A stretch of 40,000 nucleotides of DNA from Terriglobia bacterium. Its GTDB lineage: Bacteria; Acidobacteriota; Terriglobia; Bryobacterales; Bryobacteraceae. The notes under the pieces were generated by a model, which worked only from the letters and a program-made list of their open reading frames with translations, had not been told where the DNA came from and did no database searches. The DNA lies in NCBI GenBank assembly GCA_963842825.1, contig CAWJHX010000009.1, positions 532,520-572,519 of the forward strand, read 5' to 3'. Position numbers and translations under genes: made by a program. Each line of letters begins with the position of its first letter. Position 1 is the stretch's first letter. Below, one piece after another: positions 7,706-24,756 of this stretch.

Positions 7706-7749
7706 ACACGACTCCTTTGTGCAGCAGTTTACTGGGTTTAGGGGTTGGA

Positions 7750-7763
7750 GTCAATGCGGTCGG
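7750..7763. repeat. Left copy of the 14-bp direct repeat GTCAATGCGGTCGG (putative target-site duplication of the casposon)
   Basis: Identical 14-mer at 24743..24756 in the same orientation. Each copy directly abuts the outer end of a terminal inverted repeat. Confidence 0.85.
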
Positions 7764-7799
7764 GGGTTAGGAGATAGAGGGTTTTGAAACCGCACCCCC
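7764..7799 (+). repeat. Left terminal inverted repeat (TIR-L) of the casposon
   Basis: GGGTTAGGAGATAGAGGGTTTTGAAACCGCACCCCC. The reverse complement of 24707..24742 is GGGTTAGGAGATAGAGGGGTTTGAAACCGCACCCCC, so 35/36 positions are identical. This also explains the shared peptide GCGFK(T/P)LYLLT in spurious ORFs 7738..8118(-) and 24637..24927(+). Confidence 0.9.
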
Positions 7800-8111: not shown

Positions 8112-8624
8112 ATGCCAATTGACGCCTGCACCAGTACTTTCGCAGAGATGGCCGCGAGCATCCTGCCGGGTGATATGGCGAGGCTCCGGGCGGCTCTAGC
8201 TACACCGGTTCCAATGTCTTCGTTTTGTGAACATGGGTTCGGCGTCAAATCCATCGTTGCAAAGTTGCGACGAAGTACAGATTTTTCAGGGTGCTATGTG
8301 CTGCTGCGGGAAGGAAAGCCGTTCTACGTTGGCATTTCACGAACCGTGGTTCAACGACTTCGCCAACATGTGACAGGAAAAACCCATTTCGACGCAAGTC
8401 TTGCCTACCTAATGGCGACCGATAAAACAGGCCACAAAATGAAACGGGCCGATGCCATGCTAGACCCTGTCTTCCGCACGGCCTTCGATCAAGCCAAGGC
8501 GCTGCTTCGAGATTGCAGTGCCGCGTTTATCGACATCGAAAACCCTCTCGAACTCTACCTGTTTGAAGCCTACTGCGCGATGGAGTTGGACACCTGCGAG
8601 TGGAACACGTTTCGGACCCATTGA
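8112..8624 (+). CDS. GIY-YIG nuclease superfamily-like protein (casposon cargo)
   Basis: GCYVLLREGKPFYVGISRTVVQRLRQH matches the GIY...YVG...R...H pattern. A downstream conserved Glu is plausible in LELYLFEAYCAMEL. The true start is uncertain, since several in-frame Met codons lie downstream of 8112. Confidence 0.5.
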   Translation: MPIDACTSTFAEMAASILPGDMARLRAALATPVPMSSFCEHGFGVKSIVAKLRRSTDFSGCYVLLREGKPFYVGISRTVVQRLRQHVTGKTHFDASLAYLMATDKTGHKMKRADAMLDPVFRTAFDQAKALLRDCSAAFIDIENPLELYLFEAYCAMELDTCEWNTFRTH

Positions 8625-8770
8625 TCGGCACTGGTTGCGCAAAGGACCCTTTGTGAGACACAACAAATTAGGTGGAGGACTTCGGAATCTGACTTAATCG
8701 ATAATCAAAGCATTCTCGAACAACCGCTAAATCCACCGCACAACTGTCACGCGGGGGAAGGAGTGAATTT

Positions 8771-9574
8771 ATGGGGGATGAGCGACTGCCTACACCAACA
8801 ACGCCGGTCGACCCCATTGCGGATGACGACCCCGTAAAGCTGCATCTTGAGGAGCGCGCTCAGCTCATCGACGCGGCCAGAGAGAACGCGCGAACGTTCG
8901 ACAAGGCTGTACTGACATTTGGCTCAGCCGTTTTCGGCTTCTCTATCGCATTCCTAAAGGATGTAGCCCCTCATCCTGCGCCCGGCACTCTGTGGTGGTT
9001 GGGTGGCGCATGGGCATCTTTCTCATTCGGTTTACTCAGCATACTTACGTCATTTCTCTGTGGCCAACAAGCTTTTCAGTTTGAAATTACCGAAAGTACC
9101 AACGCTCTGGCCCCAGGGTATCAGCGCAAAAAGAATCGCTGGAGTACGGCGGCCCAGTGCGGCAATGTTCTTTGCGTTGTGTTTCTCTTCTTTGGATTGC
9201 TGTGTTGGTCAAAGTTTGCATTTGATAACCTTAGCCGTGTAGACACCACGGCGACTACGGTTCAGACCCCGGTGGGAAAAGAGGGGCCAAAGGAAGGCGC
9301 ATTGAAACCTACGAAAGATACTTCAGACACTTTACCACTCAAAAAAACGTACACACCACCCCGAACACCGCCACCGCCTAACAGGCTGTTGAAGAATATT
9401 GGCGAGCTGAGCAGGAGAGCGTTCTTAGGGGCGAAGAAAGAGTTTCCGAGGGCGTGGGCAGGGGTTTCAGCGCCTGAGGAAGAGCCTCAGGCGGCGGCCT
9501 GGCGGCCTTTTACGCAGCCGCTTCCATCAGATTACGGATTCGGATCATATTATAGGCAGCGGCGGCGAAGGTGA
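8771..9574 (+). CDS. Membrane protein with proline-rich C-terminal tail; 3' end interrupted by IS insertion at 9381/9382 (reading frame continues into the IS)
   Basis: GGAAGGAG RBS upstream of the ATG at 8771. Predicted TM segments: VLTFGSAVFGFSIAFL, WWLGGAWASFSFGLLSILTSFL and NVLCVVFLFFGLLCW. From 9382 onward the translated sequence (NRLLKNIGELS...) is IS-derived. Removing the IS and one CTAA copy restores ...TYTPPRTPPPPKRNPPPPPSQKP*, ending at 10691. Confidence 0.6.
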   Translation: MGDERLPTPTTPVDPIADDDPVKLHLEERAQLIDAARENARTFDKAVLTFGSAVFGFSIAFLKDVAPHPAPGTLWWLGGAWASFSFGLLSILTSFLCGQQAFQFEITESTNALAPGYQRKKNRWSTAAQCGNVLCVVFLFFGLLCWSKFAFDNLSRVDTTATTVQTPVGKEGPKEGALKPTKDTSDTLPLKKTYTPPRTPPPPNRLLKNIGELSRRAFLGAKKEFPRAWAGVSAPEEEPQAAAWRPFTQPLPSDYGFGSYYRQRRRR

Positions 9575-10647
9575 ACATCCAAGCGACTCTGTCGCGGCCT
9601 CGATGCCTGGTCTTGCGAAGCCCCGCCGTGGTCTTGATCCAGCCGAATACCTGTTCGACTAACTTACGCTTCTTCTGACTCGCCCGATATCCATCGTGCC
9701 GCGTGGTGCGGACATCGATGCGGCTCCGCCGCCGGGTGTTGTTCTGCGCGATGTGCGGAGTTACGGCCCACTGTCGCAGACCTTCTACAAACGCACTGGT
9801 GTCATAACCCTTGTCCGCGCCCAACGTCACGCGCCGCCGATGGCCCGGAAGCCGAGCCGCCATCACCAGCGCCGCATCCCGCTCGGCTCGTCCGTTTGCT
9901 TCGGTGAGTTCGGCATCCACCGCCAGGCCATGCCGATTGTCGATGATCACATGACCGAGATACGCCATCTGCGCTTCCTTTCCGCTGCTCTTGCGATAGA
10001 GCTTCGCTTCCGGATCGGTGGTCGATTGATGCGTATCGTTGCGGCGTTTCTGTCCGCGGAATCCGCCCTCGCCATTCGTGTCGTCATCCGAGCCACCGTC
10101 TTTCGGACGGAAGCTCTTGTGCGATGCCCAGGCCTCGATCAGCGTGCCATCGACCGTGAAGTGTTCGTTGGAGAGCAACCGTAACGCGCGGGCTTGTTCC
10201 ACCACGCAAGAGAATAGTTCCTGCGCCACATCGCCCGCCAGCAGCCGTTCGCGATTCTTCGAAAACACCGCATGATTCCATGCCGGCTCGGTCATGTTCA
10301 ATCCCACGAACCACCGGAACAACAGGTTGTATTCCAGTTGCTCGACCAGCATTCGCTCGCTGCGAATCGAGTACAACGCCTGCAGCAACAGGGCGCGCAG
10401 TAATCTTTCCGGTGCAATCGAGGGACGTCCCGCTTTCGCGTACATCTCATCAAAGCGCCTCGACATCGATTCCAGCGCCGCATCCACCATGGCCCGCAGC
10501 GGACGCAACGGATGCTCTTGCGGCACCCGCTCCTCCAGCGTCCCGTATAGAAATAGCTCGTTATCTTGCCGATCGTCTCCGCGCATGATTGTAGGGCGTC
10601 GCCACTTTCCTTCAGGTCACAGCGATAAAGTGTTTTTCAACATTCTG
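9382..10647 (-). mobile_element. IS5-family insertion sequence nested in the casposon
   Basis: Single DDE transposase ORF. Imperfect terminal IRs: CAGGCTGTTGAAGAATA (left) versus CAGAATGTTGAAAAACA (reverse complement of the right end), 13/17 identical. Flanked by a 4-bp direct repeat CTAA (9378..9381 and 10648..10651), which matches the YTAR target duplication known for IS5-group elements. Confidence 0.75.
9510..10586 (-). CDS. IS5-family DDE transposase (InsH-like N-terminal DUF772 domain + DDE_Tnp_1)
   Basis: The sequence HPLRPLRAMVDAALESMSRRFDEMYAKAGRPSIAPERLLRALLLQALYSIRSERMLVEQLEYNLLFRWFVGL is a textbook IS5/IS1182-type transposase N-terminus. The C-terminal DDE region includes ...LGADKGYDT... 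and ...VEQVFGWIK. Confidence 0.9.
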   Translation of the reverse strand: MRGDDRQDNELFLYGTLEERVPQEHPLRPLRAMVDAALESMSRRFDEMYAKAGRPSIAPERLLRALLLQALYSIRSERMLVEQLEYNLLFRWFVGLNMTEPAWNHAVFSKNRERLLAGDVAQELFSCVVEQARALRLLSNEHFTVDGTLIEAWASHKSFRPKDGGSDDDTNGEGGFRGQKRRNDTHQSTTDPEAKLYRKSSGKEAQMAYLGHVIIDNRHGLAVDAELTEANGRAERDAALVMAARLPGHRRRVTLGADKGYDTSAFVEGLRQWAVTPHIAQNNTRRRSRIDVRTTRHDGYRASQKKRKLVEQVFGWIKTTAGLRKTRHRGRDRVAWMFTFAAAAYNMIRIRNLMEAAA

Positions 10648-10726
10648 CTAAACGCAATCCACCGCCACCACCACCTTCCCAAAAGCCGTAAGGTAGAAAC
10701 AGCACTCAAGGGCGAAACACACTCTT

Positions 10727-11150: not shown

Positions 11151-14084
11151 TCATCTGTGAATGCCTTCCAACAAATTCCAGCGCCGAATTCCGCCTTTCG
11201 CGTCGCCAGAGATGGCGCTGTGTTGATCGGGACACCAGTCAACATCGCGTACATCAGCAGTATGGCCTTCTAAGATCCGAAGGCACTGCCGCGTCTCGAC
11301 GTCCCATTGCCGCACAGTGTTGTCTGCGGAGCCGGAGAGAGCGTGGCGACCGTCGGCAGCCCACGCCAGCGTCACTACATACTCAATGTGACCTTCGAAG
11401 GTGCGCAAGCATTGTTCCGTTTCAACATCCCAAAGCCGCAAAGAGCCGTCCTCAGAACTGGAAAGAAAGCGGGATTGATCCGGACTCCACTTCACACAAT
11501 ACACGGGAGAGTCATGGCCTCTGAAAATTCGCAGGCATTGGTGCGTCTCGACGTCCCATAGCCGCACGGTGTTGTCTTCGGAGCTAGAGAGTACGCGAGA
11601 CTGATCCGCATTCCATTCCGCGCTCGTAACTGTGTCAGTGTGTCCTTCAAGAACCCCAACGCAGCTTCCCATCTCAACGTTCCAAAGTCGCACGCTGTGG
11701 TCACAAGAGCCGGAACAGGCGTAGCGCTGATCACGGCTCCAAGCGACACTCCAGACTTGTTCTGTATGACCTTCGAGAATGCGCAAGCATAGACCCGTAT
11801 TGACGTCCCATAGCCTTACGGTATGATCATCAGCCGCAGACAACGCGGAACATCGGTCGTTGCTCCAGGCAACACATTCAACAGGTTTTGTATGCCCTTC
11901 GAATAGACGTAGGCAGTGCCCTGTTTCCAAGTCCCATAGCCGCACGGTCTTGTCCCGACCTCCCGTTAGAGCCCGTCTTGAATCCGGGCTGAATGCGTAG
12001 CAATAGAAGGGGCCCTTATCCGCGAGTTGGATGGCTTTGTTGATAAGCCCTTCCGGTGCCGTCGATGGTTCGAATGTCGTTGAGCGCTGAGTGGGGTCTT
12101 CGGCAACTGACTCGCGGCTGGCCCCCCACTTGTCGTGAGTGGTAGCGCCGAAGGAGAGCCGATTTTGAGTTCTTATGAACGTGAGCCGAGCCGAGCTTCG
12201 AAACCACCATTGACCGTCGGCATCCCTATACGTGACGCTGACGGTAATGCAATAATCTGGACCTCCATATATTCCACCGCCACCAGACTTCGAATCAGCT
12301 TCGGCGAAAGCCGCTGGCAGGTTCCATTTTTGCCCCGCTATCGCAAGCCCCGAATAACCTTCCAGCCACACCAAGGCAAATCCGGCCCTGCCTTTATCGA
12401 TCCGTGCAATTGTCTCGGCAGCGGCTCTCACCGATGGCGCAATCTCAAATCCCTCTATCGTTACGTCGTACGCCACTGTGCCATCGTTCACCAGATAAAA
12501 CCCGGCTTGGCCCGAACGTATTGGCACAGGGTGTTCCTCTGGGATTTCACCCCACTCGCGAAAGACAATTCGAGGACGCTTAGAAGGCGGGCGTGATCGG
12601 TTTTCTGTTGGATGATTGGATAAGAAATTGACTTGAGACGCCCCGCGCGGACGAAAGATTCCTTGGGGCAGAGCTCGCAAGAGCGCAAAAAATAGAGAAG
12701 CAGCTGTATTGCAAGCATAGTTTGTCCATGCTGGGTCTCTCCTGAACCCTACGACATCGCTAATGCCACGAATAGCTAGGATTGGGTATTCCTTATCCAT
12801 CCGCCGCGCTGCGGCGTAGACGCCCGAAAGCTCCATCTCAACAGCCACCAGATCACGTGCCGCTTGGCTCCACTGTTGGATGGTTACAGTATCTTTGATG
12901 AGGTGGCCGCTGGACGCGATCGAGCGAGCGGTTACAATCGGGTGTTCCCGCCTAGCCATCGATCCGAAGCGGGCATTGAGGGCTTCCTGAACTTTCTGCT
13001 TCCACTCCTTGGAACCGTAAAACCTATCGGGACTTGTATCAACGTCCGGACGCGGGAGTTGAATATGAGCTTCCGTGTTCCAATCCTCTAATGGCAAGGC
13101 ACGGAACGAAGCGATGAGGTCTTGTACCGCCTTGTTCATCGGGCCGCCTTGGTTGGCTAACTCCGGGTTTGTGCCTTCTATAAGCGCACTAACCGTAAAA
13201 TCGTGCAATCGATTTGCTACGACGACATCTCCCAATGTGAATTCAGTGTTTGGGATAGCGCCGCCAATACCGACGAGGGCCAGCCAGTGTGGGCTTAGGT
13301 CCTCGATGATATCGCGGGCTGCATCCTGCCCCGCATTGGGACCCTGTTCGATGGCTCGCAGGACAGCGACACGGTAGGAATCGCCGTTCTGACTAGATAC
13401 CGTTCCAATGACATATGTCCGGTGTTTAAGTCTGATGACGTTTTGTTCTGGTAGGCGACTCAAGACAGCATCGTATTCATCCTCTCGAACCGTGATGACC
13501 GCAATGTCTATTGGCGTTGGCTTGCCATACGCACCGCCAGTGTCATCACTTGGATGGCCCGGACGAACATAGAATTTGGAGGAGGGTTCACGCAAGGTCT
13601 CTTCGTTCGACTCACCCGCGTTGAATGAAGGCGTATTTTGGGCGGAAGAACTGATTGAGGGTGCCGGTATTAGACGTTTATAACCTTCGCCAATCCAGTG
13701 ACCGATCCGCTGTTGAATGACATGAAACTGCTGATCCCCCGGCATCGGTTGAAGTATTTCCGGTGGACATCCGAGGTAGTCTTGCCAAGCTTGGCGCCCG
13801 AGTGCGTTTGCCAGCGTCATGAATGCCTCTTGAGACTCCATGTTTCCTACGAGCTCAAGATAAGCTGTGGCGCGAATGTCGAGCTGGCGTAACACCACTT
13901 CGAGTCGAGCTGGAGTTGCCCACCGCTTTTCCTCCTCGGTGAGACTATCCACAAGCTGATTGGTGTCATTGATTATTCGAACCTGGGCAGCAGGAAACCC
14001 TGGATTGCGCTTTAGAATGTTCTCTGCTCTTTCTATAGCTTGCTGACGGGCGCGAGCGGCACGCCTCTCATGTCGCGTCATCAT
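11151..14084 (-). CDS. Multidomain protein: N-terminal helical region + PNP_UDP_1 nucleoside phosphorylase/nucleosidase-like domain + beta-rich linker + 7-bladed WD40 propeller (candidate conflict/defence effector; casposon cargo)
   Basis: Phosphorylase-superfamily signatures: ALVGIGGAIP, VAVEMELSGVYAAARR and ILAIRGISDVVG (about aa 195-470). Seven very regular ~42-aa WD40 units (GHTxxVxxVAWSxDxxxxLSxSxDxTVRLWDVETGQCLRxxE) span about aa 690-977. I found no Walker A/P-loop between them. Confidence 0.8.
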   Translation of the reverse strand: MMTRHERRAARARQQAIERAENILKRNPGFPAAQVRIINDTNQLVDSLTEEEKRWATPARLEVVLRQLDIRATAYLELVGNMESQEAFMTLANALGRQAWQDYLGCPPEILQPMPGDQQFHVIQQRIGHWIGEGYKRLIPAPSISSSAQNTPSFNAGESNEETLREPSSKFYVRPGHPSDDTGGAYGKPTPIDIAVITVREDEYDAVLSRLPEQNVIRLKHRTYVIGTVSSQNGDSYRVAVLRAIEQGPNAGQDAARDIIEDLSPHWLALVGIGGAIPNTEFTLGDVVVANRLHDFTVSALIEGTNPELANQGGPMNKAVQDLIASFRALPLEDWNTEAHIQLPRPDVDTSPDRFYGSKEWKQKVQEALNARFGSMARREHPIVTARSIASSGHLIKDTVTIQQWSQAARDLVAVEMELSGVYAAARRMDKEYPILAIRGISDVVGFRRDPAWTNYACNTAASLFFALLRALPQGIFRPRGASQVNFLSNHPTENRSRPPSKRPRIVFREWGEIPEEHPVPIRSGQAGFYLVNDGTVAYDVTIEGFEIAPSVRAAAETIARIDKGRAGFALVWLEGYSGLAIAGQKWNLPAAFAEADSKSGGGGIYGGPDYCITVSVTYRDADGQWWFRSSARLTFIRTQNRLSFGATTHDKWGASRESVAEDPTQRSTTFEPSTAPEGLINKAIQLADKGPFYCYAFSPDSRRALTGGRDKTVRLWDLETGHCLRLFEGHTKPVECVAWSNDRCSALSAADDHTVRLWDVNTGLCLRILEGHTEQVWSVAWSRDQRYACSGSCDHSVRLWNVEMGSCVGVLEGHTDTVTSAEWNADQSRVLSSSEDNTVRLWDVETHQCLRIFRGHDSPVYCVKWSPDQSRFLSSSEDGSLRLWDVETEQCLRTFEGHIEYVVTLAWAADGRHALSGSADNTVRQWDVETRQCLRILEGHTADVRDVDWCPDQHSAISGDAKGGIRRWNLLEGIHR

Positions 14085-14383
14085 TCCTCTTTTGTCAGAA
14101 CGAGAGGGTTACGACGGTGTCTGAAGATTCGCACCGAAACACTCTCGTGTGTCACACCTTTCAGCTAGGAAACTATTTTAGCGATTTGGCTATCTTTGAG
14201 CACAGCGAAGCCGGAGCCGCTGGAGCAAGCCGATGGCTGGTTTGCCCAAAACATTTCCACGGGCCCCCGGCGCATTTCCTCTCCGGATGGCATTCGTAGC
14301 CACACTTCCGTACGAAGATGACCAAAAAGCAATCTGAGTCTCCATTTAAATTGCGGGAAACATCGCGGTCTTCGACCAGTGAA

Positions 14384-16000
14384 TTATCGAATAACCTCCC
14401 GTTCAACTGGTGCGGGCTCCATTTCCGGATATCTTAAGATTCCGGTCAGTTCCGCCAGCTTCACCCAATGCCTCGGATGCGGAATTCGCTTGCCATTGCG
14501 AACGTTCGCAGCGTACGGCAGAGAAACGCCGAGCACCGATGCGATAGACGACCTCGTAACCGTCGCAAGCAATGGCACGATCTTGGCCCTATAAACATCT
14601 TCGTTCAACCAGGTGGGCAAGCTGGCCGCGTCCCAGTTCTTGGCAGCAGCAACATTCTTGCGCAGAGTAGCAGCGCGCCGGCTTTGAGCATCCGAAGAAT
14701 GTGCAACTGAGCGACCTTTCACGGCTGCAACTTTCATATGCTCTGTTGCGACGATCATCCCGCATGACTTGCAGTGTTCCGTTCCCCGGCGCGTTGTCTT
14801 TCCGCAAATGCGGCAAACGCCGTCCGGAAAGATTGGCCTAATCGAGGCATCGTCGAAACTGCTACCTTTCACGATCCGCTTCTGTTCTTGAGTCAGGCGT
14901 GTTGGTGTGGACCTGTAGCGCGCGTGTTTCGGACCTTTTGACCACAATGCCCGCGCCACATATTCCGCCAGCGGAGCTATTGCGCGACGCCACGTTTGTG
15001 CGGTTTCCGAAAGTAGCGCCGCGAGCGGTGCCATCAGGCGGCAGTTCCCATCGCTCTGCTCGAAAAACCATTCCCGCCTGAGCGGTTCGCGAGCGATCCA
15101 GTTCAACACGAAAGCGTCAACCTGAGGGCGAACCGGCTCCATCAGATCTGCAGGCAGACTATCGCGATGGGTAGCGTCCGCGTGCATAAAGCCAAGGCAC
15201 GGATCGAGACCTAGCATTGCCGTGGCGAGGCGGGCCTCGGCCTCCAGGATTGCGTAAAGGTAGTTCAGCATCGCATTGGCGGGATTCGATGCAAGTCGCG
15301 GTGATCCGGAAAGCGGAGATCTGCGGGCGCGAAACGTCCTCCAGTGATCCGGCATGCATTGCAAGTCCCTCTGCGGAAATTGAATCTGCACGTCTCGCCA
15401 CGCTCCCCAATATGCCGCGCCTGCTTGGGATTCAAGCAAACGGATCGAATCGAAAGCGCTCAGCGACGGAATCTCTGAACGAAGGCGGGCGATTGCATCT
15501 GCCGCGACCGGATTTCGAAGGTGTGAGCGCGCGATCTCTTCCTGACCTAGGAGTTTCCTGGTAATCAAATCGCGCGTGATTTGAATTCCGATGCCAGATT
15601 GCCGCGCGAGCGCCTGGGCGCGCCTGAGGTGGACTTCGGATTTCCGAACCGGCCCTGTAACGGTCAGAATCTTACCATCCCTTTCTAGCATGACGAACGC
15701 CGCGTTTTGATCCGCAAGCCAGCGCAACGCGGCCAGCGAAACCATTCCATCGTGACCAATGACCACGAGCCTTTCGAGCCCGTGAGCGACGCGCGGTAAT
15801 CGGGCGTAGCGACGATCAGCCGCGATGCCATCTTCCAGAATCAAATGGCCACTATCGACACGGACTTGAATTCCGTAGCCGAAAAGCGTTATGACGCCGT
15901 GGCGGGGTGTGATTGCTAATTGGGGATTTGCGGCCAGAATTTCTGGCACGTTGGATTTGCGCAGGCGTAGCCGATGCGCTACGGTTTTCGTAGCTGCCAT
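14384..16000 (-). CDS. cas1: Cas1-family integrase (casposase) with C-terminal zinc ribbon and HTH extension
   Basis: Cas1 N-terminal beta domain: GVITLFGYGIQVRVDSGHLILEDG...LERLVVIGHDGMVSLAALRWLADQNAAFVMLERDGKIL. Catalytic alpha domain: SNPANAMLNYLYAILEAEARLATAMLGLDPCLGFMHADATHRDSLPADLMEPVRPQVD (Glu / His / Asp-Glu triad context). C-terminal CRICGKTTRRGTEHCKSCG and an HTH-like SSIASVLGVSLPYAANVRNGKRIPHPRHW. GGAGGG RBS upstream of the ATG at 16000. No cas2 gene or repeat array in the window. Confidence 0.9.
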   Translation of the reverse strand: MAATKTVAHRLRLRKSNVPEILAANPQLAITPRHGVITLFGYGIQVRVDSGHLILEDGIAADRRYARLPRVAHGLERLVVIGHDGMVSLAALRWLADQNAAFVMLERDGKILTVTGPVRKSEVHLRRAQALARQSGIGIQITRDLITRKLLGQEEIARSHLRNPVAADAIARLRSEIPSLSAFDSIRLLESQAGAAYWGAWRDVQIQFPQRDLQCMPDHWRTFRARRSPLSGSPRLASNPANAMLNYLYAILEAEARLATAMLGLDPCLGFMHADATHRDSLPADLMEPVRPQVDAFVLNWIAREPLRREWFFEQSDGNCRLMAPLAALLSETAQTWRRAIAPLAEYVARALWSKGPKHARYRSTPTRLTQEQKRIVKGSSFDDASIRPIFPDGVCRICGKTTRRGTEHCKSCGMIVATEHMKVAAVKGRSVAHSSDAQSRRAATLRKNVAAAKNWDAASLPTWLNEDVYRAKIVPLLATVTRSSIASVLGVSLPYAANVRNGKRIPHPRHWVKLAELTGILRYPEMEPAPVEREVIR

Positions 16001-16100
16001 GGGAGTTTTACCCTCCTTTGGTTGTCAGGGCTCGCCGCCTGCTCGCAACAGACAGCAGGCCCGAACTACTTGTAATATCTATAACTTAGAATACCGCAAA

Positions 16101-16679
16101 CTATCCTTTTTTGCTCGGTTTAGAAGCCTTTCCGAGCAAAGAATTCCGGCGTCTCATTTCCGTTTCGTATTTTCGTCGGAGTGTTCTTGGCTTGAGCCCA
16201 ACCTCGGGAGCAAAACGCGAGTAAAGGTTTTTCAAGGATTCGGCTTCCTCTCCCTTCGCACGGTTTATCTTGTCCACAATTTCACCAATCTGCACGCTGC
16301 TCGCCAGCTTCTCCGACGGCCCACCCAATGGTTTTAGTGTATTTCTTGCTTTATCGAGGAGATGGCGAAATCCCGGCGCGATTGATCTAAAGATTAAACG
16401 CACCCTATCAAAATCTTCCGGCTTCGGCTCTTCCAAACTGAGCATTAAATTCTCAAATTTCTCACGAGTTTCGATTCGATCGAGATACCCTTCAAATGTC
16501 TTTCGGTTGTCGGCACCGGGTAACGACCTTCCGAAAACTGGCAGGAAAAGCGCACGGAACGCAGGAGATCGGAGCGCGGCTCGCACACGGACTACCACGT
16601 CTTCGTAGGTCTCCGACTGGGTCTCGGCAATGAGCCGATCAATTTCCTTCCAGATTTGTTGGAGAGTTTCGCGTGTCAC
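16101..16679 (-). CDS. Hypothetical protein upstream of and co-oriented with cas1 (casposon core)
   Basis: 192-aa ORF with a GTG start, charged and helical in character, with a basic C-terminus (RTLRRKYETEMRRRNSLLGKASKPSKKG). No family recognised. Confidence 0.5.
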   Translation of the reverse strand: MTRETLQQIWKEIDRLIAETQSETYEDVVVRVRAALRSPAFRALFLPVFGRSLPGADNRKTFEGYLDRIETREKFENLMLSLEEPKPEDFDRVRLIFRSIAPGFRHLLDKARNTLKPLGGPSEKLASSVQIGEIVDKINRAKGEEAESLKNLYSRFAPEVGLKPRTLRRKYETEMRRRNSLLGKASKPSKKG

Positions 16680-16825
16680 TGCGTGCTGCGACCCCTACTT
16701 GGATTGAACCCAGCGTACCAAAGAGCAAAACCGGCTGATGCCGGATGGCCAAGACACCCCCCATCTGGACCCGGCCCTTTTTTACCTCTACAACCCTGGT
16801 GTGACCTGTTGGCGAAAGGAAATTC

Positions 16826-17380
16826 ATGAAAAAGCAAAAACCAAAATCGAAATCGAATCAAAGAACAAAAAGAGATCTGATTCAAACGCGTACAGCATCC
16901 GCAAATAAACGACGCTCCGGCAAAAAGGCGCAGCTTCAGCAAAGTTTTCCCAAAGTGACCAGCGCGCTCTCAAAAATGCGAGCCGGTGCTTCGCTGCGAA
17001 AAGCCTCGCGAGAGTCCGGGGTGGCAGCCCGTACGGTGCTGAAACGAGCCGCTTCTGTCTTGCGCAAAAACAAGAGCGGGCGATACACCGCGAAGGCGGG
17101 CGATCGTCTGGTTCGGGTGCTCAAGATTCCAACACCCCAAGGTCCGGAGGAGATCAGTGTTCGCGGTCTGCGCGCCGCAAGTTTGCTGGGACGCTATTGG
17201 GCTGCCTTAGACAATTACTACGAAACGGGGGACATCTCAGCACTTAAGAAATTTGAGGGTGAGTCCGTTACTGCGGTCGATGGCACCAAGTACCCGTTGC
17301 TGACGGATCTCAATTTGCTTAATCGTCTAGGGTACGCGGGAGTGCTTTCGTTCGAATCCCTCTACGGGAGGAACGCGTAA
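16826..17380 (+). CDS. Basic HTH-containing hypothetical protein, first gene of the HNH-PolB operon
   Basis: Lys/Arg-rich N-terminus (MKKQKPKSKSNQRTKRD...). HTH-like LRKASRESGVAARTVLKRA. The TAA stop is followed immediately by the ATG of the next gene (taaATG at 17378-17383). Confidence 0.55.
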   Translation: MKKQKPKSKSNQRTKRDLIQTRTASANKRRSGKKAQLQQSFPKVTSALSKMRAGASLRKASRESGVAARTVLKRAASVLRKNKSGRYTAKAGDRLVRVLKIPTPQGPEEISVRGLRAASLLGRYWAALDNYYETGDISALKKFEGESVTAVDGTKYPLLTDLNLLNRLGYAGVLSFESLYGRNA

Positions 17381-17899
17381 ATGCCAAAGAAAATGCCCCA
17401 ACGAGATCCCATCAGTGCCTCCCAGCGAAAATCTGCCGCCGCTCGGCGTGTAGGGAAGAACGCACAGTGCACGCACTGCGGTGAAACGCGGCCTGAAGCC
17501 CTGATCGCGAATAGCAAACCACTCACATGCGCGGAATGCCAACGGAGGAGCCAAGGGAAATCGATCATAGATGATCACCACGTCGCCATGCGGGCAAACA
17601 ATCCGACGACGATGCCGGTTCCCGTGAACGATCACCGCGCCGAACTCAGCGCCGCCCAACATGATTGGCCCAAAAAGACGCGGGAGAATCCCGATGGCAG
17701 TCCGCTCATCGCCGCTGCCGGGTGTATTCGCGGATTCATGGACCAGCTTTTCTACTTGGTTGAAAAATTCTTGCACTGGACTGCTGGGATGCTTGAAGAC
17801 CTCGATTCTTACCTAATCGAAAAACTGGGGCCACAGTGGTGGTTACAGACTCCGCTGAAACAATTCGCGCCCCACGGAGGCTGCGATGCCAAATCCTAA
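17381..17899 (+). CDS. Zn-finger / HNH-like nuclease protein
   Basis: CTHCGE...(x19)...CAECQRR, followed by IIDDHHVAMRANNPTTMPVPVNDHRAEL (an H-N-H-like arrangement). It overlaps the PolB start by 14 nt. Confidence 0.5.
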   Translation: MPKKMPQRDPISASQRKSAAARRVGKNAQCTHCGETRPEALIANSKPLTCAECQRRSQGKSIIDDHHVAMRANNPTTMPVPVNDHRAELSAAQHDWPKKTRENPDGSPLIAAAGCIRGFMDQLFYLVEKFLHWTAGMLEDLDSYLIEKLGPQWWLQTPLKQFAPHGGCDAKS

Positions 17900-20800
17900 G
17901 CCAACTCCGTTGACGCTTGCCCTTCGGGTCTATCCCGAGCCCACGAACGCCAAGCGGGAACCGGCATCGCCCAAGCCATGGAAGTGCCCAAAGGCGATGC
18001 TCGTTTTTGACACCGAGACGCGGACCGACGCGACGCAACGCTTGACCTTTGGAAGCTACCGCTATTTTCATGAAGGCCGGTGCCTCGAAGAGGGCTTGTT
18101 CTACGCTGACGATTTGCCGGAAAAAGACCGTCGAGTTCTCGAAGAATACGTCGCAACGCACAGGCCTGAGACGGCTGGTGACGGCGTGCGGAATCTGAAG
18201 TTTCTTTCGCGCAGCCAGTTCGTTGACAAGTTCTATAGCTCCGTCTATAAGGGCCGTTGTCTTCTGGTTGGCTTCAATCTTCCCTTTGATCTCTCGCGCA
18301 TCGCCTGCGACTTCACAACCGCGCGCGGTCGCTTCGCGGGTGGTTTCTCCCTCGGCTTTTGGCTGTGGACGGATAAGACGGGCCGCGAGCGGGGGGATCA
18401 TTTCAGGCCCAGAATTGGGATCAAGCACATTGACAGCAAGCGCGCGCTGAAAGGTTTCACTGCGCGGAACGGCCCTGATCAAACGGACTTGATTCCAGAA
18501 GATTGCGAGACCGGGAGCCCCCAGAAGGGCTATAAGTTTCGGGGGCACTTCTTGGATCTGCGCACGCTGGCATTTGCGCTGACGGATAAGGGCTATTCTC
18601 TTGAGGCGGCTTGCGAAGCCTTCGGAGTGGAGCACGGAAAGCAGAAAGTCGCCAAGCATGGCGAGGTCACGGAAGAATACATCGACTACAATAGGCGCGA
18701 CGTTTTGGCCACTTCCGAACTCGCGGTGAAGCTCCTTGAAGAATACGACAAGCATCCAATCACGCTTCAGGCGACGAAGGCATATTCCCCGGCCTCCATC
18801 GGCAAGGCCTACTTGCGGGCGATGGGAATCGTGCCAATCCTGGAACGGCAACCGGGCTTCCCGAAGGAGTATCTCGGATACGCGCAGTCGGCCTTCTTTG
18901 GCGGACGAACGAGCGCACATATTCGAAAGCTTGCGGTCCCTGTTGTTTACACGGATTTTCTTTCGATGTATCCCACGGTAAACAGTCTCATGGATCTATG
19001 GCGCTTCGTTACTGCGCGTGAGATTCGGATCGTGAAGAACTGCAAGCGGGAGACCGAAGCATTCCTGGGCCGCGTGACCGTCGACGATCTTTTCAAGCCC
19101 GCCACGTGGAAATACCTGCCCGCGTTCGTCCGCATAATCCCGGACGGCGACATCCTGCCGACGCGCGCGAAATACAGCACCGTGAGCAACGATTGGCAGG
19201 TGGCCGTGAATCATGTGTATGCCGACAAGGACAGTTCGATCAATCAGGAACTGTGGTTTTCGCTTCCGGATATTGTTGCTTCGGTAATTCTGACGGGGCA
19301 AGTTCCCAAGATCGTGGATGCGTTCCGGATTGAGCCGAAAGGTAAAATGCAGGGGCTTACTCCAACCAAGCTGCGCGGATCGATTGAGATTGATCCAACG
19401 CGTCAAGACTTCTTCAAAGTGGCGATTGAAGAACGGAAACGCCTGCATTCGCACGCCGATCTTCCCGAAGCCGAAAAGAAGCGGCTCGACAAGGCCCTCA
19501 AGGTGCTGGCGAATGCCGCAAGCTACGGCATTTACGCCGAAATGAATCCTCAGGAGACGGATGAAAAGACGCAGGTAACGTGCCACGGCGTCGACTGCGA
19601 ACCGTTCACGTGCCGTGTTGCCCATCCCGACGTGCCGGGCGAATATTGCTTTCCGCCGCTTGCATCCTTAATAACAGGGGCAGCGCGTCTCATGTTGGCG
19701 CTGTTGGAACATTGCGTCTCGGCTTTGAATGGCACATACGCGATGGAGGACACCGATTCCATGGCGATTGTCGCGACCAAACGCGGCGGATTGGTGCCCT
19801 GTCCGGGAGGGTCCTTCAAGACCAAAGACGGTCGACCGGCGGTGAAAGCGCTCTCCTGGAAGCAGGTTGAAGAAATCTCGGAACGATTCGCGGCGCTGAA
19901 CCCGTACAATCGCGAAGCGGTGCCAGGATCAGTTCTCAAGATCGAAGAGGATAATTTTGATGCAAAAACAGGTCATCAGCGACAGCTCTCCTGCTTTGCA
20001 ATCTCGGCGAAGCGTTACACGCTATTCACGCTCGACAAGAGTGGTGAGCCCGTGATGCTGCGAAAGGAAGCCAACAACAAAAGTGACCGCTGGTCTCAGC
20101 ATGGCCTCGGGCATCTTTTGAATCCAACTGACACAAGCAGCGCGGATCGGGATTGGATCGGGCAAGTGTGGCTGAACATGTTGCGCAGATCTTATCGTCT
20201 GCCCGTTCAAAAGCTCAGTTTCGAAAAGTTACCCGCTGTTGGCCGCGTCAGTGTGGGCAGTCCCGCCACAATGCGCTCTTTTTCGAGTTTCAACGCTGGG
20301 AAGGCGTATTCCCAGCAAATTAAGCCCTTCAACTTTGTTCTGACTTGCCAAGTAAAGCAGCTTGGACATCCCAACGGCGTCGATCCAGAACATTTTCATC
20401 TGATCGCGCCGTCCGATGGCGAACCCGGCCGGTGGATCGAGACGGATTGGATCGACCAATATACCGGCAACCTATACAGGATCACAACCCAGGGTCACTA
20501 CGGAAGCCAAGATGCTGCGCGTGTAAAAACGTACGGCGAGATTCTGCGCGAATACGAATTTCATCCGGAGGCAAAGTGCGCCGACCAAGACGGAAATGCC
20601 TGCGAAAGGCGTGCGACTGGTTTGCTTCAACGAAGGCACGTCATAATTGACGGCATACGATTCATTGGAAAAGAATCGAATGCTCTGGAAGACGTTGAGG
20701 CCGGGCTGGTTCACTCCGCAGAAAGTGCCTACACCGAATACTGCGATCCGAAATACGACGAATGGACTACGAAAATCGCACCTGCATTGAAGAAAGCTCC

Positions 20801-20951: not shown

Positions 20952-21365
20952 GCCGCGCGGAGACGCCGAAAGCTTTCCACCGTGACATAACGGCGGATTC
21001 TCGGCGGAAACATCGGACGGCCCTGGGTATATGCTGGTCGGAAGAACGTGCTTCGGCTGGGACTAATCCGCTGGCTTCTCCTCTACCTCCTCGCAGCGGC
21101 CGGGTCTGTTCGCCTGCTGGCCGGGAGACGGGTCTGGGATTTCAAGACGAACAGGGAGGTGGTGTCGTGGCAGCTCAGATTTATAACTTACTCGACCACG
21201 CTCGATGGGGACGGTTTCAATCGGGACAGAAAACCCATCCCGTGCGCGATCTCGCCGGACGGTGAATACGTTGTTGAGGGTGGCGACGGAAAGTATGTTA
21301 TCGTCTACGACCGAACGAGGTCGCGACGAGAGGAGATTTCGAGGTTCTGCGCGAAAGCGGCGGAC

Positions 21366-21563
21366 CTATCTCTTTGTGCTTCGCTTCTTCCCGCGCTTCG
21401 CTTCCGCAAGAGCGGCCGCAATCGGGCCACGGTCTCTCTTCGGGGTCTTCGGGTCGCGCAGGTCTTTGCCAGCCTGCGAGGCAACTTTCTTGGAAGTCGG
21501 CATGCCCTCATTATACACCCAATAAATCATTTCCATACGTTCCTGTTTGTACTTCAGGCCCAT
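21366..21563 (-). CDS. Small basic hypothetical protein (65 aa)
   Basis: MGLKYKQERMEMIYWVYNEGMPTSKKVASQAGKDLRDPKTPKRDRGPIAAALAEAKRGKKRSTKR. The codon pattern looks more coding-like than the Arg/Leu/Ser-rich antisense half of ORF 21048..21602. There is no obvious RBS. Confidence 0.3.
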   Translation of the reverse strand: MGLKYKQERMEMIYWVYNEGMPTSKKVASQAGKDLRDPKTPKRDRGPIAAALAEAKRGKKRSTKR

Positions 21564-21610
21564 AAGGGACGTTATGTTGCTCTAAACTTGGAAAGGAGGT
21601 AGTCTCCTTT

Positions 21611-22327
21611 TTGATGAACAACCTCCCGAACAGCCCACCGGCCGGAGACACCTGCTACGCATGTGAGCGACGGGCCACCACGAGGGAACACGCGCCACCA
21701 AAAAGCTTTTTCCCGATGGAAAAACGCAAGAATTTAATTGTCGTTCCATCCTGCTCGGTCCACAATTGCGATAACTCTCCGGATGTCGAATACGTTCGAA
21801 ACGCAATCGCGTTTCTCGCGGGCCTAAACGGAACTGGCGAATTATTGATCGACACCGCAAAGCGATCGTTCGATCACAGTCCCGCCCTGTTTAAGCGGAC
21901 GTTTCAATCCTTCGTTGTCCATTCCCAAGAAGAACAAGTGGGCACATACAAGGCCGACCTACCACGGGTTAGAACAGTAATGACAGCGGTGGCCCAGGCG
22001 CTCCATTATCGAGATCAGCATCAAAAGTGGGGCCGTTGGCACGTGTTCGTACCGAGCCTCGGGTCAGAGGCATCGTTAATTCACAAACGCTCTGATGGCT
22101 GGGAAGCGTTCAGGGACTTATTAAGCCGCATCCCCTATGTAGATCAGCCCACGGCTGAACCGGAAGTCTTCAGATACGGAAGCCACGCACTTGATTGGGG
22201 CTGGATATATCAGTTCACCTTCTACGGCGGCTTCGTCGTCAATGCGTGGATGCTTCGCGAAGACGCTGATGACCCATATGCCACAGCAACCGAAACGAGA
22301 CACCCAGAGCGCGCGCCAAACCAATGA
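21611..22327 (+). CDS. HNH (beta-beta-alpha-Me)-like N-terminal domain protein (casposon cargo)
   Basis: CYACERRATTREHAPPKSFF...NLIVVPSCSVHN fits a CxxC...EH...N...CxxHN HNH-type finger. AAAGGAGG RBS at 21592-21599. The start is the TTG at 21611 or the ATG at 21614. The C-terminal ~170 aa are unassigned. Confidence 0.45.
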   Translation: MMNNLPNSPPAGDTCYACERRATTREHAPPKSFFPMEKRKNLIVVPSCSVHNCDNSPDVEYVRNAIAFLAGLNGTGELLIDTAKRSFDHSPALFKRTFQSFVVHSQEEQVGTYKADLPRVRTVMTAVAQALHYRDQHQKWGRWHVFVPSLGSEASLIHKRSDGWEAFRDLLSRIPYVDQPTAEPEVFRYGSHALDWGWIYQFTFYGGFVVNAWMLREDADDPYATATETRHPERAPNQ

Positions 22328-22523: not shown

Positions 22524-24620
22524 TCACCTATTCTCATTAGGGGTCAACACCCGGATTCGATTGTGGTCGGTCAAGTAAACTACGCCACGAGCGTCTACCG
22601 CTACACTGTTTGGAAAAATCGGTGCCTTGAGCGCGGGCCCACCGTCCCCAGAGAATCCTGTTTCATGATTTCCGGCTATGGTGTGAATGATTCCATCTCG
22701 CGTTATTTTGCGTATACGCCAATTGGCGCGATCTGCGATGTAGACATTCCCTTGGGTGTCGATAGCCAGCGAATCTGGATCGCCCAATCCAGCCTTGACA
22801 GCGGGCCCATCATCTCCACTAAATTCCTGCTTACCGATACCAGCTACGGTGCGAACAATACCATCTCGATCCAGCCTCCGAATGCGGTGGTTGAAGGTGT
22901 CCGCTACGTAAAGGAGGCCCTCACGGTCTATGGCCACACCGTGTGGGAAATCCAACCTGATAGAACGAGCCGGTCCGTCTCCGCTAGGACCCTTCTCACC
23001 GTTTCCGATTATCGTGCGTATGATTCCTTGCGGATCGATCTGGCGAACACGATTGTTCTCCCGATCCGCAAAATATACATCGCCCTGGGCATCAACAGCC
23101 AACCCCATAGGATTCGCTAGCTCTGCCGTCAACGCTGGTCCGTTATCCCCCGCAAATCCCTTCTTGCCAGTCCCGGCGATTGTTTGAATGCGACCGTCAG
23201 CCGATACCTTCCGGATTCGATTGTTCAAGGAATCGGAAATGTAGACGTTCCCTCGGAGATCTGCTGCGACCCCACTGGGATTGTCGATGTTGGCCTCAAC
23301 AGCCGGTCCTCCGTCTCCACTGAACTGCGGGGGTGGACCAGTCCCCTCCATTCTGATTGTCGGGATGCCCTTGCCCGCGATTCTGGAAAAGCGCCCATCG
23401 CGAGTGATGCGCACGATACGATTCCTCCCCGTGTCGGCGATCAAGATGTCCCCCGATGGACCGACGGCGACGCTCCAAGGATTCAACAGTCGCGCCAACT
23501 CGGCGGGACCGCCTTCTTTTTCCTCGGGCAAGGCGCTCAAACCGGCGACCACAGTTACCGCGCCGCCGGGTGCCATTCGCAGCACACGGTGACCGAGGGT
23601 ATCAGCCACGTAGATTGTGCCCTTTTCGTCGACGACAACATCGGCTGGGGAATGGAGGCCCGTTTTGAGCGGGTCGCCGTCTTCCACAATTGGACCGTTC
23701 TTTGCACCCAGAAGCGTGGTGATGATTCCATTTCCGTCAACCTGCCTAATGTTCCCGGCGGCAATAAGTAGATTGCCCTGTGGATTAAAGGCGACCGCCA
23801 TCGGGTAGAAAACGACAGCAGCTAACGCGGAGCCACCGTCGCCGGTTGACGGCGCACCTCGATTTACACCTTCGCCTGCGATGGTCGTTACTGTCCGCGA
23901 TGGGTCAATTCTGGCGGTCCGCGCATGGTTTCGATCTGCAATGTAAATGGCTCCATCCGGACCCAAAGCGATACCTCGGGGACTCGCCAAAGGGCTTACC
24001 GGATTGCGCGGTCCCACTCCTGGTTGTCCCACGACGCTCGTGATAACTCCGTCGGTGTTTATCTTGCGAACGGTATTGTTCATGCTCTCCGTGAAGTAGA
24101 GAACATCCGAGCGGTCGATGGCAATGCCATTCGGCCAGGAAAGCTTTGCCTTTGCTGCTGGCCCGCCATCGCCATCATAGCCGTGCTCTCCCGTTCCGGC
24201 GAACGTCGAAATGATTCCGTCCGGAGTGACGCGACGAACGCGGTGGTTCATGGTATCGGCAATATACAAGTTACCGTGTGAATCGAGCGCGATACCTCTT
24301 GGGAACAATAGCTGCGCCTGGATTGCAGGCCCTCCGTCCCCTCCGTATCCCTGCGCACCGTTGCCCGCGATAGTTCTGATTCGCCCCGACGCGTCAACGA
24401 CCCGCACGACCTGGTTCCCGGTATCGGCGATGTACAGGTCTCCATCGCGACGGAGCGCCAGCCCTCCAGGCTTGTTTAGCCTGGCTTGGGTCGCTGGACC
24501 ACCATCGCCGGTGTAGCCATCGAGTGTCGATCCTGCGCCAGTGAGCGTAGTGATTGTGTACGTACCTTGACCCAGGAGCGCGGAGGCAAACACAACCAGC
24601 CATAATGGTCTAAGGCTCAT
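22524..24620 (-). CDS. Secreted NHL-repeat protein (GDGGPA-motif repeats, probably two six-bladed propellers); casposon cargo next to TIR-R
   Basis: Start placed at the ATG at 24620 (MSLRPLWLVVFASALLGQG signal peptide). The track ORF start at 24722 lies inside the TIR. There are more than 10 repeats of the pattern GDGGPAxxAxLxxPxGxAxDxxGNLYIADxxNxRIRxV. Confidence 0.8.
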   Translation of the reverse strand: MSLRPLWLVVFASALLGQGTYTITTLTGAGSTLDGYTGDGGPATQARLNKPGGLALRRDGDLYIADTGNQVVRVVDASGRIRTIAGNGAQGYGGDGGPAIQAQLLFPRGIALDSHGNLYIADTMNHRVRRVTPDGIISTFAGTGEHGYDGDGGPAAKAKLSWPNGIAIDRSDVLYFTESMNNTVRKINTDGVITSVVGQPGVGPRNPVSPLASPRGIALGPDGAIYIADRNHARTARIDPSRTVTTIAGEGVNRGAPSTGDGGSALAAVVFYPMAVAFNPQGNLLIAAGNIRQVDGNGIITTLLGAKNGPIVEDGDPLKTGLHSPADVVVDEKGTIYVADTLGHRVLRMAPGGAVTVVAGLSALPEEKEGGPAELARLLNPWSVAVGPSGDILIADTGRNRIVRITRDGRFSRIAGKGIPTIRMEGTGPPPQFSGDGGPAVEANIDNPSGVAADLRGNVYISDSLNNRIRKVSADGRIQTIAGTGKKGFAGDNGPALTAELANPMGLAVDAQGDVYFADRENNRVRQIDPQGIIRTIIGNGEKGPSGDGPARSIRLDFPHGVAIDREGLLYVADTFNHRIRRLDRDGIVRTVAGIGKQEFSGDDGPAVKAGLGDPDSLAIDTQGNVYIADRANWRIRKITRDGIIHTIAGNHETGFSGDGGPALKAPIFPNSVAVDARGVVYLTDHNRIRVLTPNENR

Positions 24621-24706: not shown

Positions 24707-24742
24707 GGGGGTGCGGTTTCAAACCCCTCTATCTCCTAACCC
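24707..24742 (-). repeat. Right terminal inverted repeat (TIR-R) of the casposon
   Basis: The reverse complement matches TIR-L at 35/36 positions (see 7764..7799). Confidence 0.9.
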
Positions 24743-24756
24743 GTCAATGCGGTCGG
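24743..24756. repeat. Right copy of the 14-bp direct repeat GTCAATGCGGTCGG (putative TSD)
   Basis: Identical to 7750..7763, and it abuts TIR-R. Confidence 0.85.

Follow-up and report, generated by a model that had tools for sequence, protein, structure and literature searches.

A very probable casposon in an acidobacterial chromosome and a clade of relatives whose target sites resemble promoter -35 boxes

Background

Casposons are the proposed ancestors of the adaptation machinery of CRISPR systems. By definition they combine a Cas1-family integrase (the casposase) and a family B DNA polymerase (PolB) with terminal inverted repeats (TIRs) and a target site duplication (TSD) of ~14 bp, and have no other conserved recombinase (PMC4046053). 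Here we analyse a stretch of 40 kb from a Terriglobia bacterium (contig CAWJHX010000009.1 of assembly GCA_963842825.1, positions 532,520 to 572,519), referred to below as the window, in which a 538-aa Cas1-family protein lies inside what is very probably a complete casposon. We also compare the element with its relatives, many of which appear to share a particular choice of target.

Several described casposons bear directly on this locus. The fusion of Cas1 to a zinc-binding domain and a helix-turn-helix (HTH) domain has been published for AceAut-C1 (Ca. Acetothermum autotrophicum fosmid AP011671; Krupovic et al. 2014, PMC4046053). NitAL212-C1 of Nitrosomonas sp. AL212, a member of family 3, is 14.4 kb long, intergenic, and bounded by a 36-nt TIR starting GGGGTA and a 14-bp TSD, and StrAlb-C1, also of family 3, has an HNH gene directly upstream of PolB (PMC4046053). 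A similar HTH on both the casposase and PolB is a published trait of the archaeal family 2 casposons (PMC4046053), and the PolB of the A. boonei casposon belongs to the 'PolB_CDTDS' group, named after its motif C. The M. mazei casposase acts as a tetramer that clamps 14 bp, the transferred strand ends in ...CCC-3', deletion of the HTH inactivates the enzyme, and target specificity needs ~30 bp next to the TSD (PMC6977970). For a bacterial (family 3) casposase we found no report of biochemical characterisation in the literature.

Results

An inverted-repeat scan gave, as the longest meaningful pair in the window, two 36-nt repeats that bracket cas1 and PolB and are complementary at 35 of 36 positions (97%). 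The element between their outer ends is 16,979 bp long (7764-24742), its TIRs terminate in ...CCC-3', and a perfect 14/14 direct repeat, GTCAATGCGGTCGG, abuts both of them; a 12-nt core of this TSD is unique to these two copies within the window. The element's genes, from its left end, are a GIY-YIG ORF (open reading frame), an ORF interrupted by an insertion sequence (IS), a PN-effector/WD40 gene, the casposase gene, orf192, orf184a, orf172, PolB (1.9 kb from the casposase ORF), two further ORFs and an NHL gene (Table 1). Among the element ORFs scanned, the sole DDE transposase is that of the nested IS, which is absent from a second copy of the element (locus L001, see below), and no tyrosine or serine recombinase, capsid or packaging gene was found. 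The searches for a CRISPR array, tRNA, Rfam RNA and Cas2 covered the window: no CRISPR-like array, tRNA or Rfam RNA was detected in these 40 kb, a tandem-repeat scan gave nothing relevant, and no Cas2 was present among the ORFs scanned, the small ORFs having been scanned in part. Because Cas1, PolB, TIRs and a TSD of ~14 bp occur together here, the element fits the definition of a casposon, and we consider it very probable that the acidobacterial chromosome carries a complete casposon within the window, with the 538-aa Cas1-family integrase as its casposase.

The 538-aa ORF contains the motifs NAMLNYLYAILEAE, GLDPCLGFMHAD, DLMEPVRPQVD, CRICG-x9-CKSCG and IPHPRHWVKLAEL. Pfam Cas_Cas1 matches residues 40-323 (E=8.7e-40) and HTH_3 gives a weak match at residues 482-521. 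The best hits in a PDB sequence search were A. fulgidus Cas1 (4n06) and the M. mazei casposase (6opm), and the catalytic Glu (LESQ), His (FMHAD) and Glu (DLMEP), that is E190, H273 and E288, align with both; N246 is conserved as well. In an alignment of 27 sequences, E190, N246, E288 and the four cysteines C396, C399, C410 and C413 are invariant, as is the segment W..WL..Y..P...PH.R (PHPRHW), and H273 is kept in at least 90%. The C-terminal extension of ~200 aa is retained in the family, since the best 120 homologues are mostly ~500-540 aa long and most cover at least 91% of the query; when the 27 family members were scanned individually, HTH_31 was matched in 10, HTH_3 in 9 and zinc-ribbon models in 4. 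The AlphaFold2 model has a mean predicted local distance difference test (pLDDT) score of 75, with residues ~393-525 at 70-89; in it the CxxC...CxxC site forms a hairpin, residues 467-519 form a bundle of four helices, and there are two long helices besides. In the structural comparison the 6opm casposase matches this model best (E=2.9e-17). Of the NCBIfam models, TIGR00287 (cas1) scores above its cut-off and all subtype-specific Cas1 models far below theirs; homologues at JGI are labelled 'CRISPR-associated endonuclease Cas1'.

An earlier note on this DNA had described a Cas1 with a zinc-ribbon and HTH extension of ~200 aa, casposase-like and distinct from CRISPR adaptation Cas1. The ORF at 14384-16000(-) with every quoted motif, the Cas1 fold signatures in the N-terminal part and the extension (by its invariant cysteines, the domain matches in relatives and the predicted fold) are all borne out, and the casposase-like character agrees with the 6opm fold match, the TIR/TSD-bounded element with PolB and the family 3 grouping given below. 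Two of the checks that the note had proposed on Cas1 came out in its favour, namely the alignment of the catalytic Glu/His/Glu to 4n06 and 6opm and a phylogeny that sets the protein apart from CRISPR Cas1. The description as stand-alone, with no Cas2 or array, holds for the array within the 40 kb and for Cas2 among the ORFs scanned, but 'stand-alone' overlooked PolB at 17886-20951(+) and the TIRs and TSD. As for the added zinc ribbon, which the note had called 'less usual', the same fusion was already published for AceAut-C1.

When residues 385-538 alone were used in an exhaustive HMMER search of proteins clustered at 50% identity, the cluster representatives retrieved numbered 530 at E<=1e-10 and 1631 at E<=1e-3. 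Matches to this module at E<=1e-10 (among proteins P0241-P0390) were mostly 100-300 aa long with the module at the C-terminus, the full-length matches being ~476-519 aa. The short proteins are probably gene fragments from short contigs; some may be stand-alone versions of the module.

PolB retains all of its Exo and Pol motifs: Exo I (DxE), Exo II, Exo III, motif A (DxxSxYP), motif B (KxxxNSxYG), motif C (xDTDS) and KxY are conserved in an alignment of 50 homologues and intact in the window. Motif C reads CDTDS in 24 of these homologues and EDTDS in 14 (38/50). PHROG DNA-polymerase families match the protein, a PDB sequence search with it gave nothing meaningful, and its sole Pfam match is PF03175, the organellar/viral (protein-primed type) family. 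A first reading as protein-primed PolB, taken from PF03175, was downgraded on the xDTDS motif C and the family 3 affinity of Cas1; the polymerase expected of family 3 is of the family 2/3 ('RNA-primed-like', PolB_CDTDS) type. The C-terminus of PolB (20760-20951) is homologous to the casposase HTH (14444-14640), with a BLASTP E-value of 8e-4 and an HHalign probability of 95.8% (E=8e-9), which points to a common stretch of DNA to which the two are recruited, perhaps the TIRs. Two small genes complete the core. The first, orf184a, occupies the slot of the 'conserved HTH protein' of family 2/3 casposons, and the second, orf172, has the position of the HNH gene of StrAlb-C1. The invariant residues of orf172 are C30, C33, C50, C53, D64, H66, H67, N73, N83, D84 and H85; no Pfam domain was present in the 120 homologues listed of the 462 found, and in its AlphaFold2 model the motif region has a pLDDT <50, with no Foldseek match below E=0.9.

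A scan of one genome per GTDB species yielded 243 loci that encode relatives of the casposase. The best 80 of them derive nearly all from metagenome-assembled genomes (MAGs) of Acidobacteriota (Terriglobia, Bryobacterales, Acidobacteriaceae, Acidiferrales), several of which have two loci, and the closest relative among these 80 is that of a Bryobacterales MAG (69% identity). In IMG/VR we found only one partial relative. When the proteins of the window element were compared with 82 loci by tblastn, PolB was found in 75, orf184a in 55 and orf172 in 21, the last being the loci with a PolB identity of 55% or more. Across the loci there is hardly any variation in the gene order PolB<-orf172<-orf184a, divergent from ->cas1. 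Both ends of an element are present in about two dozen, in which the TIRs are ~36 to 175 nt long and start GGG(G)T/A and the elements span 7.6-19.6 kb.

Family placement was examined with reference Cas1 cores taken from a published alignment. In BLASTP the five family 3 references came first: AceAut-C1 (45%, 217 bits), S. spinosa (38%), StrAlb-C1 (33%), NitAL212-C1 (32%) and HenMar-C1 (31%). They were followed by family 2 (24-28%, 80-107 bits), family 1 (63-65 bits) and, last, CRISPR Cas1. In a neighbour-joining tree with few references (500 unrooted-bipartition bootstraps), the acidobacterial clade received 99%, its grouping with AceAut-C1 56% and that with all of family 3 60%; family 2, to which the window Cas1 does not belong, and family 1 each formed a separate group (92% and 100%). 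The window casposase is therefore grouped, with moderate support from these comparisons, with the bacterial family 3 casposases, AceAut-C1 being the closest. The bacterial host and the intergenic insertion are family 3 traits. Of the traits of family 2, the element has the shared Cas1/PolB HTH, but neither the euryarchaeal host nor the family 2 Cas1 affiliation. Family 1 is defined by a thaumarchaeal host, a protein-primed PolB and a Cas1 without extra domains, unlike the zinc ribbon and HTH of the window protein and its bacterial host. The adjacent cas2 and nearby array of a CRISPR adaptation module are lacking among the window ORFs scanned, and in place of the piPolB, tyrosine recombinase and tRNA-linked direct repeats of a pipolin the boundaries here are TIRs and a 14-bp TSD.

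For target choice we used 24 bounded elements (loci including L013-L082), with the TIR start fixed at GGG. The TSD is 14 bp long in all 24 (15 bp in two), and its 3' end reads TTGAC in 22 and TTGTC in 2. What follows is the sixth base of a -35 hexamer, a spacer of 16-18 and TAnnnT in 23/24 cases, compared with a background of 4.2% for the -10-like pattern after any TTGAC in the same loci (binomial P≈5e-31). In the window the target sequence is CCGACCGCATTGAC and the adjoining 30 bp begins TCCAACCCCTAAACCCAGTAAACT. The promoter-like stretch reads TTGACT-17-TAAACT (7754-7726(-)), where an independent consensus scan found 1 site with 0.1 expected; downstream of it lie AAGGAG and the ATG at which gene 6329-7705(-) starts. 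The genes downstream of the targets are diverse: a ValRS-like (valyl-tRNA synthetase-like) gene in four, a secreted protein of ~500-600 aa in four or five, and ThrRS-like (threonyl-tRNA synthetase-like), NuoB-like, response regulator and other genes elsewhere. This diversity points to generic promoter-type targeting with recurrent hot spots, and a single conserved att site was ruled out as the source of the TTGAC motif. With respect to the promoter, 13 elements lie in one orientation and 11 in the other.

The window casposon has apparently been mobile recently, as judged from a comparison with the copy at L001, which comes from a different assembly. There the same element, with the same flanks and the same two TSD copies, is exactly inverted (L001 1244-18111 versus window 7750-24756). 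The interiors are 100% identical in every 1-kb bin over ~14 kb, and the single TIR mismatch moves with the interior in the inverted copy. The flanks differ more, the left falling to ~83% within 200 nt and the right being an 86-100% mosaic. The nested IS5-family element of the window is missing from the otherwise identical L001 copy, with precise junctions. In turn, L001 has an IS630-like DDE_3 element (12614-13723) inside the WD40 gene that is missing from the window copy, and its PolB is split into two ORFs, which may be a long-read indel error. On a JGI contig (L083, 1391-1475), a right TIR as in the window is followed by 14 nt, GTCAACGCGGGTAC, starting GTCAA, and then by the left TIR of a second related element, which indicates a different site and a tandem arrangement.

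Stacking of this kind is common among the relatives. In at least 12 of the 24 loci the promoter-distal flank ends in a casposon-type TIR terminus (...CCCC), namely in L015, L031, L035, L041, L051, L052, L055, L060, L063, L071, L077 and L078. No mates of these termini were found inside the fetched flanks, so that they are either solo TIRs or belong to neighbouring full elements. Wherever ends are stacked, it is the intact element with cas1 that lies nearest the promoter, a polarity that recalls the leader-proximal acquisition of CRISPR spacers. Other arrangements were observed as well. L039 (4055-18931) has a 14.4-kb element between two units of ~224 bp, each with both TIRs of another casposon type; its inner and outer 14-bp duplications are separate, and the units are perhaps derivatives like miniature inverted-repeat transposable elements. 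L020 (1-10550) and L072 (1-11934) are MAG contigs that end on both sides in inverted repeats of 98-139 nt, which reflects either assemblies broken inside long TIRs or free linear forms.

The earlier note had proposed that the 192-aa ORF (orf192) might be a partner of Cas1, given the absence of Cas2, and had suggested a check of their co-occurrence. The co-oriented position 100 nt upstream of cas1 is correct, and a co-oriented ORF lies between the core genes and cas1 in all 71 loci with a defined gap. The ORFs in this slot fall into 25 BLAST clusters, with 32, 11, 3, 3, 2 and 2 members and 19 singletons, of which orf192 is one. By tblastn against the 82 loci orf192 is seen only in copies of the window element, and it has no Pfam, NCBIfam, PHROG or PADLOC match. 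Compared with the two main slot clusters it reaches an HHalign probability of 1-3%, the sole link being a 28-residue match (E~1e-5). What co-occurs with this Cas1 is PolB, orf184a and orf172 and not the 192-aa ORF. A role as conserved partner or Cas2 substitute was thus ruled out, since orf192 is confined to copies of the window element and is unrelated to the same-slot genes elsewhere; by these comparisons it is an orphan in a hypervariable slot.

Besides orf192, the genes orf184b and orf238 and the WD40, NHL and GIY-YIG genes are regarded as cargo because they are found only in copies of the window element. PADLOC matched the 977-aa cargo protein with PDC-M60C (2.4e-18) and with a PN-superfamily effector (7.9e-12, aa 383-464), and from these matches the gene looks like a defence-like, anti-phage gene carried by the casposon. 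The 238-aa ORF (21611-22327(+)), without a database match, has an N-terminal CYAC...EHAPPK motif and a later SVHN, and may encode another HNH-like nuclease. The start of the NHL gene was set from the 698-aa gene call in L001/L002. The nested IS interrupts the cargo ORF 8771-9574.

Table 1. Features of the element and its immediate flank in the window
Feature	Position	Strand	Remarks
Predicted sigma70-like promoter of flanking host gene 6329-7705(-)	7726..7754	-	TTGACT-17 nt-TAAACT; left TSD copy includes its TTGAC
Left TSD copy, GTCAATGCGGTCGG, 14 bp	7750..7763		direct repeat abutting the TIR
Left TIR, 36 nt, GGGTTAGGAGATAGAGGGTTTTGAAACCGCACCCCC	7764..7799	+	inverted-repeat pair
Cargo ORF, 170 aa, weak GIY-YIG nuclease motif	8112..8624	+	PF01541, E=7.7e-5, just above curated cut-off
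Nested IS5-family IS, 1266 bp	9382..10647	-	DUF772 + DDE_Tnp_1; DDE transposase 9510-10586(-); 4-bp CTAA duplication
Cargo gene, 977 aa, PN-superfamily (nucleosidase-like) effector with C-terminal WD40 propeller	11151..14084	-	WD40 E=1.5e-70
Putative casposase, 538 aa	14384..16000	-	Cas1 domain aa 40-323; zinc ribbon C396/C399/C410/C413, nt 14762-14815; XRE-type HTH aa ~467-519, nt 14444-14602
orf192, 192-aa orphan gene upstream of cas1	16101..16679	-	co-oriented, 100 nt upstream
orf184a, core gene divergent from cas1	16826..17380	+	55/82 loci, fixed synteny
orf172, core gene upstream of PolB and overlapping it	17381..17899	+	CxxC...CxxC...DxHH...N...NDH, HNH-like motif
Family B DNA polymerase (PolB), 1021 aa	17886..20951	+	PF03175, 26.2 bits versus cut-off 25.8; motif C EDTDS
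Two cargo ORFs, 184 aa (orf184b) and 238 aa (orf238), no function assigned	21048..22327	+	only in copies of the window element
Cargo gene, NHL-repeat beta-propeller protein	22524..24620	-	NHL E=2.9e-63
Right TIR, 36 nt	24707..24742	-	inverted-repeat pair; one mismatch versus left TIR
Right TSD copy, GTCAATGCGGTCGG, 14 bp	24743..24756		direct repeat abutting the TIR

Outside the casposon, the region 29313-31660 contains two tandem IS200-like Y1 transposase genes (29721-30266 and 30273-30986), the first 300 nt of which are 97% identical, with four copies of a palindrome-containing repeat of ~56 nt (GGGGACGGAGGAGACGTTCCCC core) around them. This resembles an arrangement of repetitive extragenic palindromes (REP) and REP-associated tyrosine transposases (RAYT).

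Discussion

Taken together, the target sites and the stacked loci lead us to favour, with more reserve than for the casposon itself, the reading that the relatives form a clade of soil Acidobacteriota casposons, undescribed in the searchable literature, in which the casposase selects sigma70-type promoters. The duplication would end on the TTGAC of the -35 box, the element would insert in either orientation, and re-use of the regenerated promoter-proximal site would give rise to directional stacking.

Mechanistically, by analogy with the M. mazei and A. boonei casposases, a casposase tetramer would clamp the target over 14 bp; reading of the TIR and/or the ~30 bp beside the target would fall to the C-terminal HTH, probably with help from the zinc ribbon. 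The 3'-OH element ends would attack both strands 14 bp apart, gap repair would yield the TSD, and the element's own PolB would replicate the casposon ('self-synthesizing'). From the 24 bounded relatives, we infer that the chosen site ends with five bases, TTGAC, that belong to a sigma70-type -35 box. Insertion would then fall just upstream of the core promoter, in either orientation, with the promoter-proximal TSD copy keeping the promoter whole, and repeated use of such sites would produce stacked elements or solo TIRs spaced by 14-bp units. The TSD edge and the -10-like box are here roughly as far apart as the ~30 bp that the M. mazei enzyme needs, and in this respect the target pattern fits the M. 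mazei biochemistry.

How far the element is still an active casposon has to be weighed. It could be a casposon by descent that is now immobilised or domesticated, a genomic island with defence-like cargo whose Cas1 no longer transposes. The IS5-family insertion nested in the window copy implies some residence time, the PN-effector/WD40 gene is defence-like, PolB is split into two ORFs in L001, and no empty site or excised form was found in the JGI metagenome search, a negative that is uninformative. The first and the last of these also count against our reading of the window element as a complete and recently mobile casposon. However, the IS strikes a cargo ORF only, and the split PolB of L001 has a possible technical origin. 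In the window cas1, PolB, orf172 and orf184a are intact, the TIRs match at 35/36 positions and the TSD is perfect; a 99.9%-identical copy exists in the opposite orientation between diverged flanks, and several MAGs have two loci each. We therefore regard immobilisation as unlikely, if worth keeping in mind. If instead the element were of another PolB-encoding type (a pipolin or polinton-like element, or else a linear plasmid or prophage whose PolB is protein-primed) that carries Cas1 as cargo and relies on another integrating enzyme, its polymerase would suit this view to the extent that PF03175 is its sole polymerase Pfam match and PHROG DNA polymerases are matched. But the element ORFs scanned include no tyrosine or serine recombinase, capsid or packaging gene, no tRNA att site was found, the only other transposase is that of the nested IS with its own 4-bp duplication, the 14-bp TSD and ...CCC-3' termini agree with casposase chemistry, the xDTDS motif C agrees with the PolB_CDTDS group, and IMG/VR holds one partial relative. 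Such an origin seems to us very improbable.

The possibility that the protein is an orphan CRISPR adaptation Cas1, either a remnant of a degraded CRISPR-Cas system or one serving an array elsewhere in the genome, draws on the TIGR00287 score above cut-off and on the JGI labels. Given that the subtype-specific models score far below their cut-offs, that CRISPR references are the most distant in both BLASTP and the tree, that no array was found in the 40 kb and no Cas2 among the ORFs scanned, that PolB co-occurs in 75/82 loci, and that TIRs and TSD bracket the gene, we give it hardly any credence. Compared with these alternatives, a complete casposon of the family 3 type is the reading that we retain.

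Several further points weigh against parts of our interpretation. The inversion at L001 could reflect independent integration or in situ recombination between the TIRs, and for M. mazei both independent same-site integration in both orientations and TIR-TIR inversion have been considered; an assembly error is less likely, because only 18 nt are common to the junctions. The affiliation of PolB draws on its motifs and a borderline Pfam match, and the placement of Cas1 inside family 3 has moderate bootstrap values (56-67%). Domain HMM scans found no significant domain and no HTH in orf184a, and for an HNH fold in orf172 there was no Pfam match at E<=10, a PDB profile search giving zinc fingers only. 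As for target choice, the 24 bounded elements were chosen for a detectable TIR and TSD, and the promoter-like motif could be a sequence that the casposase recognises and that only happens to look like a promoter.

An intact, apparently recently mobile bacterial casposon with hundreds of relatives in Acidobacteriota provides comparative power, and the clade-wide TSD/-35/-10-like rule would offer a concrete and testable code by which a Cas1-family integrase, with zinc ribbon and HTH as its reader, recognises targets. If promoter choice is confirmed, this would be the first promoter-targeting group of casposons and a natural, abundant bacterial model for a casposase that reads a 'leader-like' sequence beside the duplicated unit, a step proposed as the origin of the CRISPR leader-repeat junction. 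There is also a consequence for annotation: the label 'CRISPR-associated endonuclease Cas1', in wide use for such proteins, makes the counts of CRISPR in soil metagenomes too high.

Comparison with described systems

In the literature that we could search, which excludes subscription-only journals, we found no report of casposons in Acidobacteriota or of promoter targeting by casposons. The Cas1-zinc ribbon-HTH architecture was already published; what this analysis adds is how large the acidobacterial clade is and which hosts it occupies, the HTH shared by casposase and PolB, and strong statistical evidence for insertion at sigma70-type -35 boxes with polar stacking, and the promoter-targeting habit inferred for the clade is probably novel.

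Among family 3 casposons, the window element resembles AceAut-C1 in the Cas1 core (45% identical) and in the domain order Cas1-zinc-binding domain-HTH, NitAL212-C1 in the 36-nt TIR, 14-bp TSD and intergenic position, and StrAlb-C1 in the small Cys/His-rich gene directly upstream of PolB. It differs from the published family in its host phylum, Acidobacteriota, in forming a separate clade (99% bootstrap) with hundreds of loci where a 'handful' had been published, and in a PolB that also bears an HTH, a trait described for family 2. The published TSD of NitAL212-C1, AGCCGGTACTGCCC, has no TTGAC, whereas the TSDs of the window clade end in TTGAC at promoter-like sites.

With family 2 and the M. 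mazei casposase (6opm; Hickman et al. 2020, PMC6977970) it shares the fold, the 14-bp TSD, the ...CCC-3' ends, the C-terminal HTH (essential in M. mazei) and the similar HTH on casposase and PolB, and with M. mazei also tandem insertions sharing a TSD and both orientations at one site. In contrast, the family 2 hosts are archaeal, their Cas1 is 24-28% identical and lacks the zinc ribbon, and they insert at tRNA 3' ends or at specific intergenic sites and not at promoter -35 boxes.

The likeness to CRISPR Cas1-Cas2 lies in the Cas1 fold and catalytic residues, the duplication of the target on integration (the repeat in CRISPR), the dependence of site choice on sequence adjoining the duplicated unit (the CRISPR leader) and the gathering of insertions at one end. 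Unlike CRISPR adaptation, in which the duplicated unit is 25-50 bp, the window element has a 14-bp duplication and inserts as a 17-kb TIR-bounded element; no Cas2, array or effector genes were found in the window, and the zinc ribbon and HTH of its casposase are not features of CRISPR Cas1.

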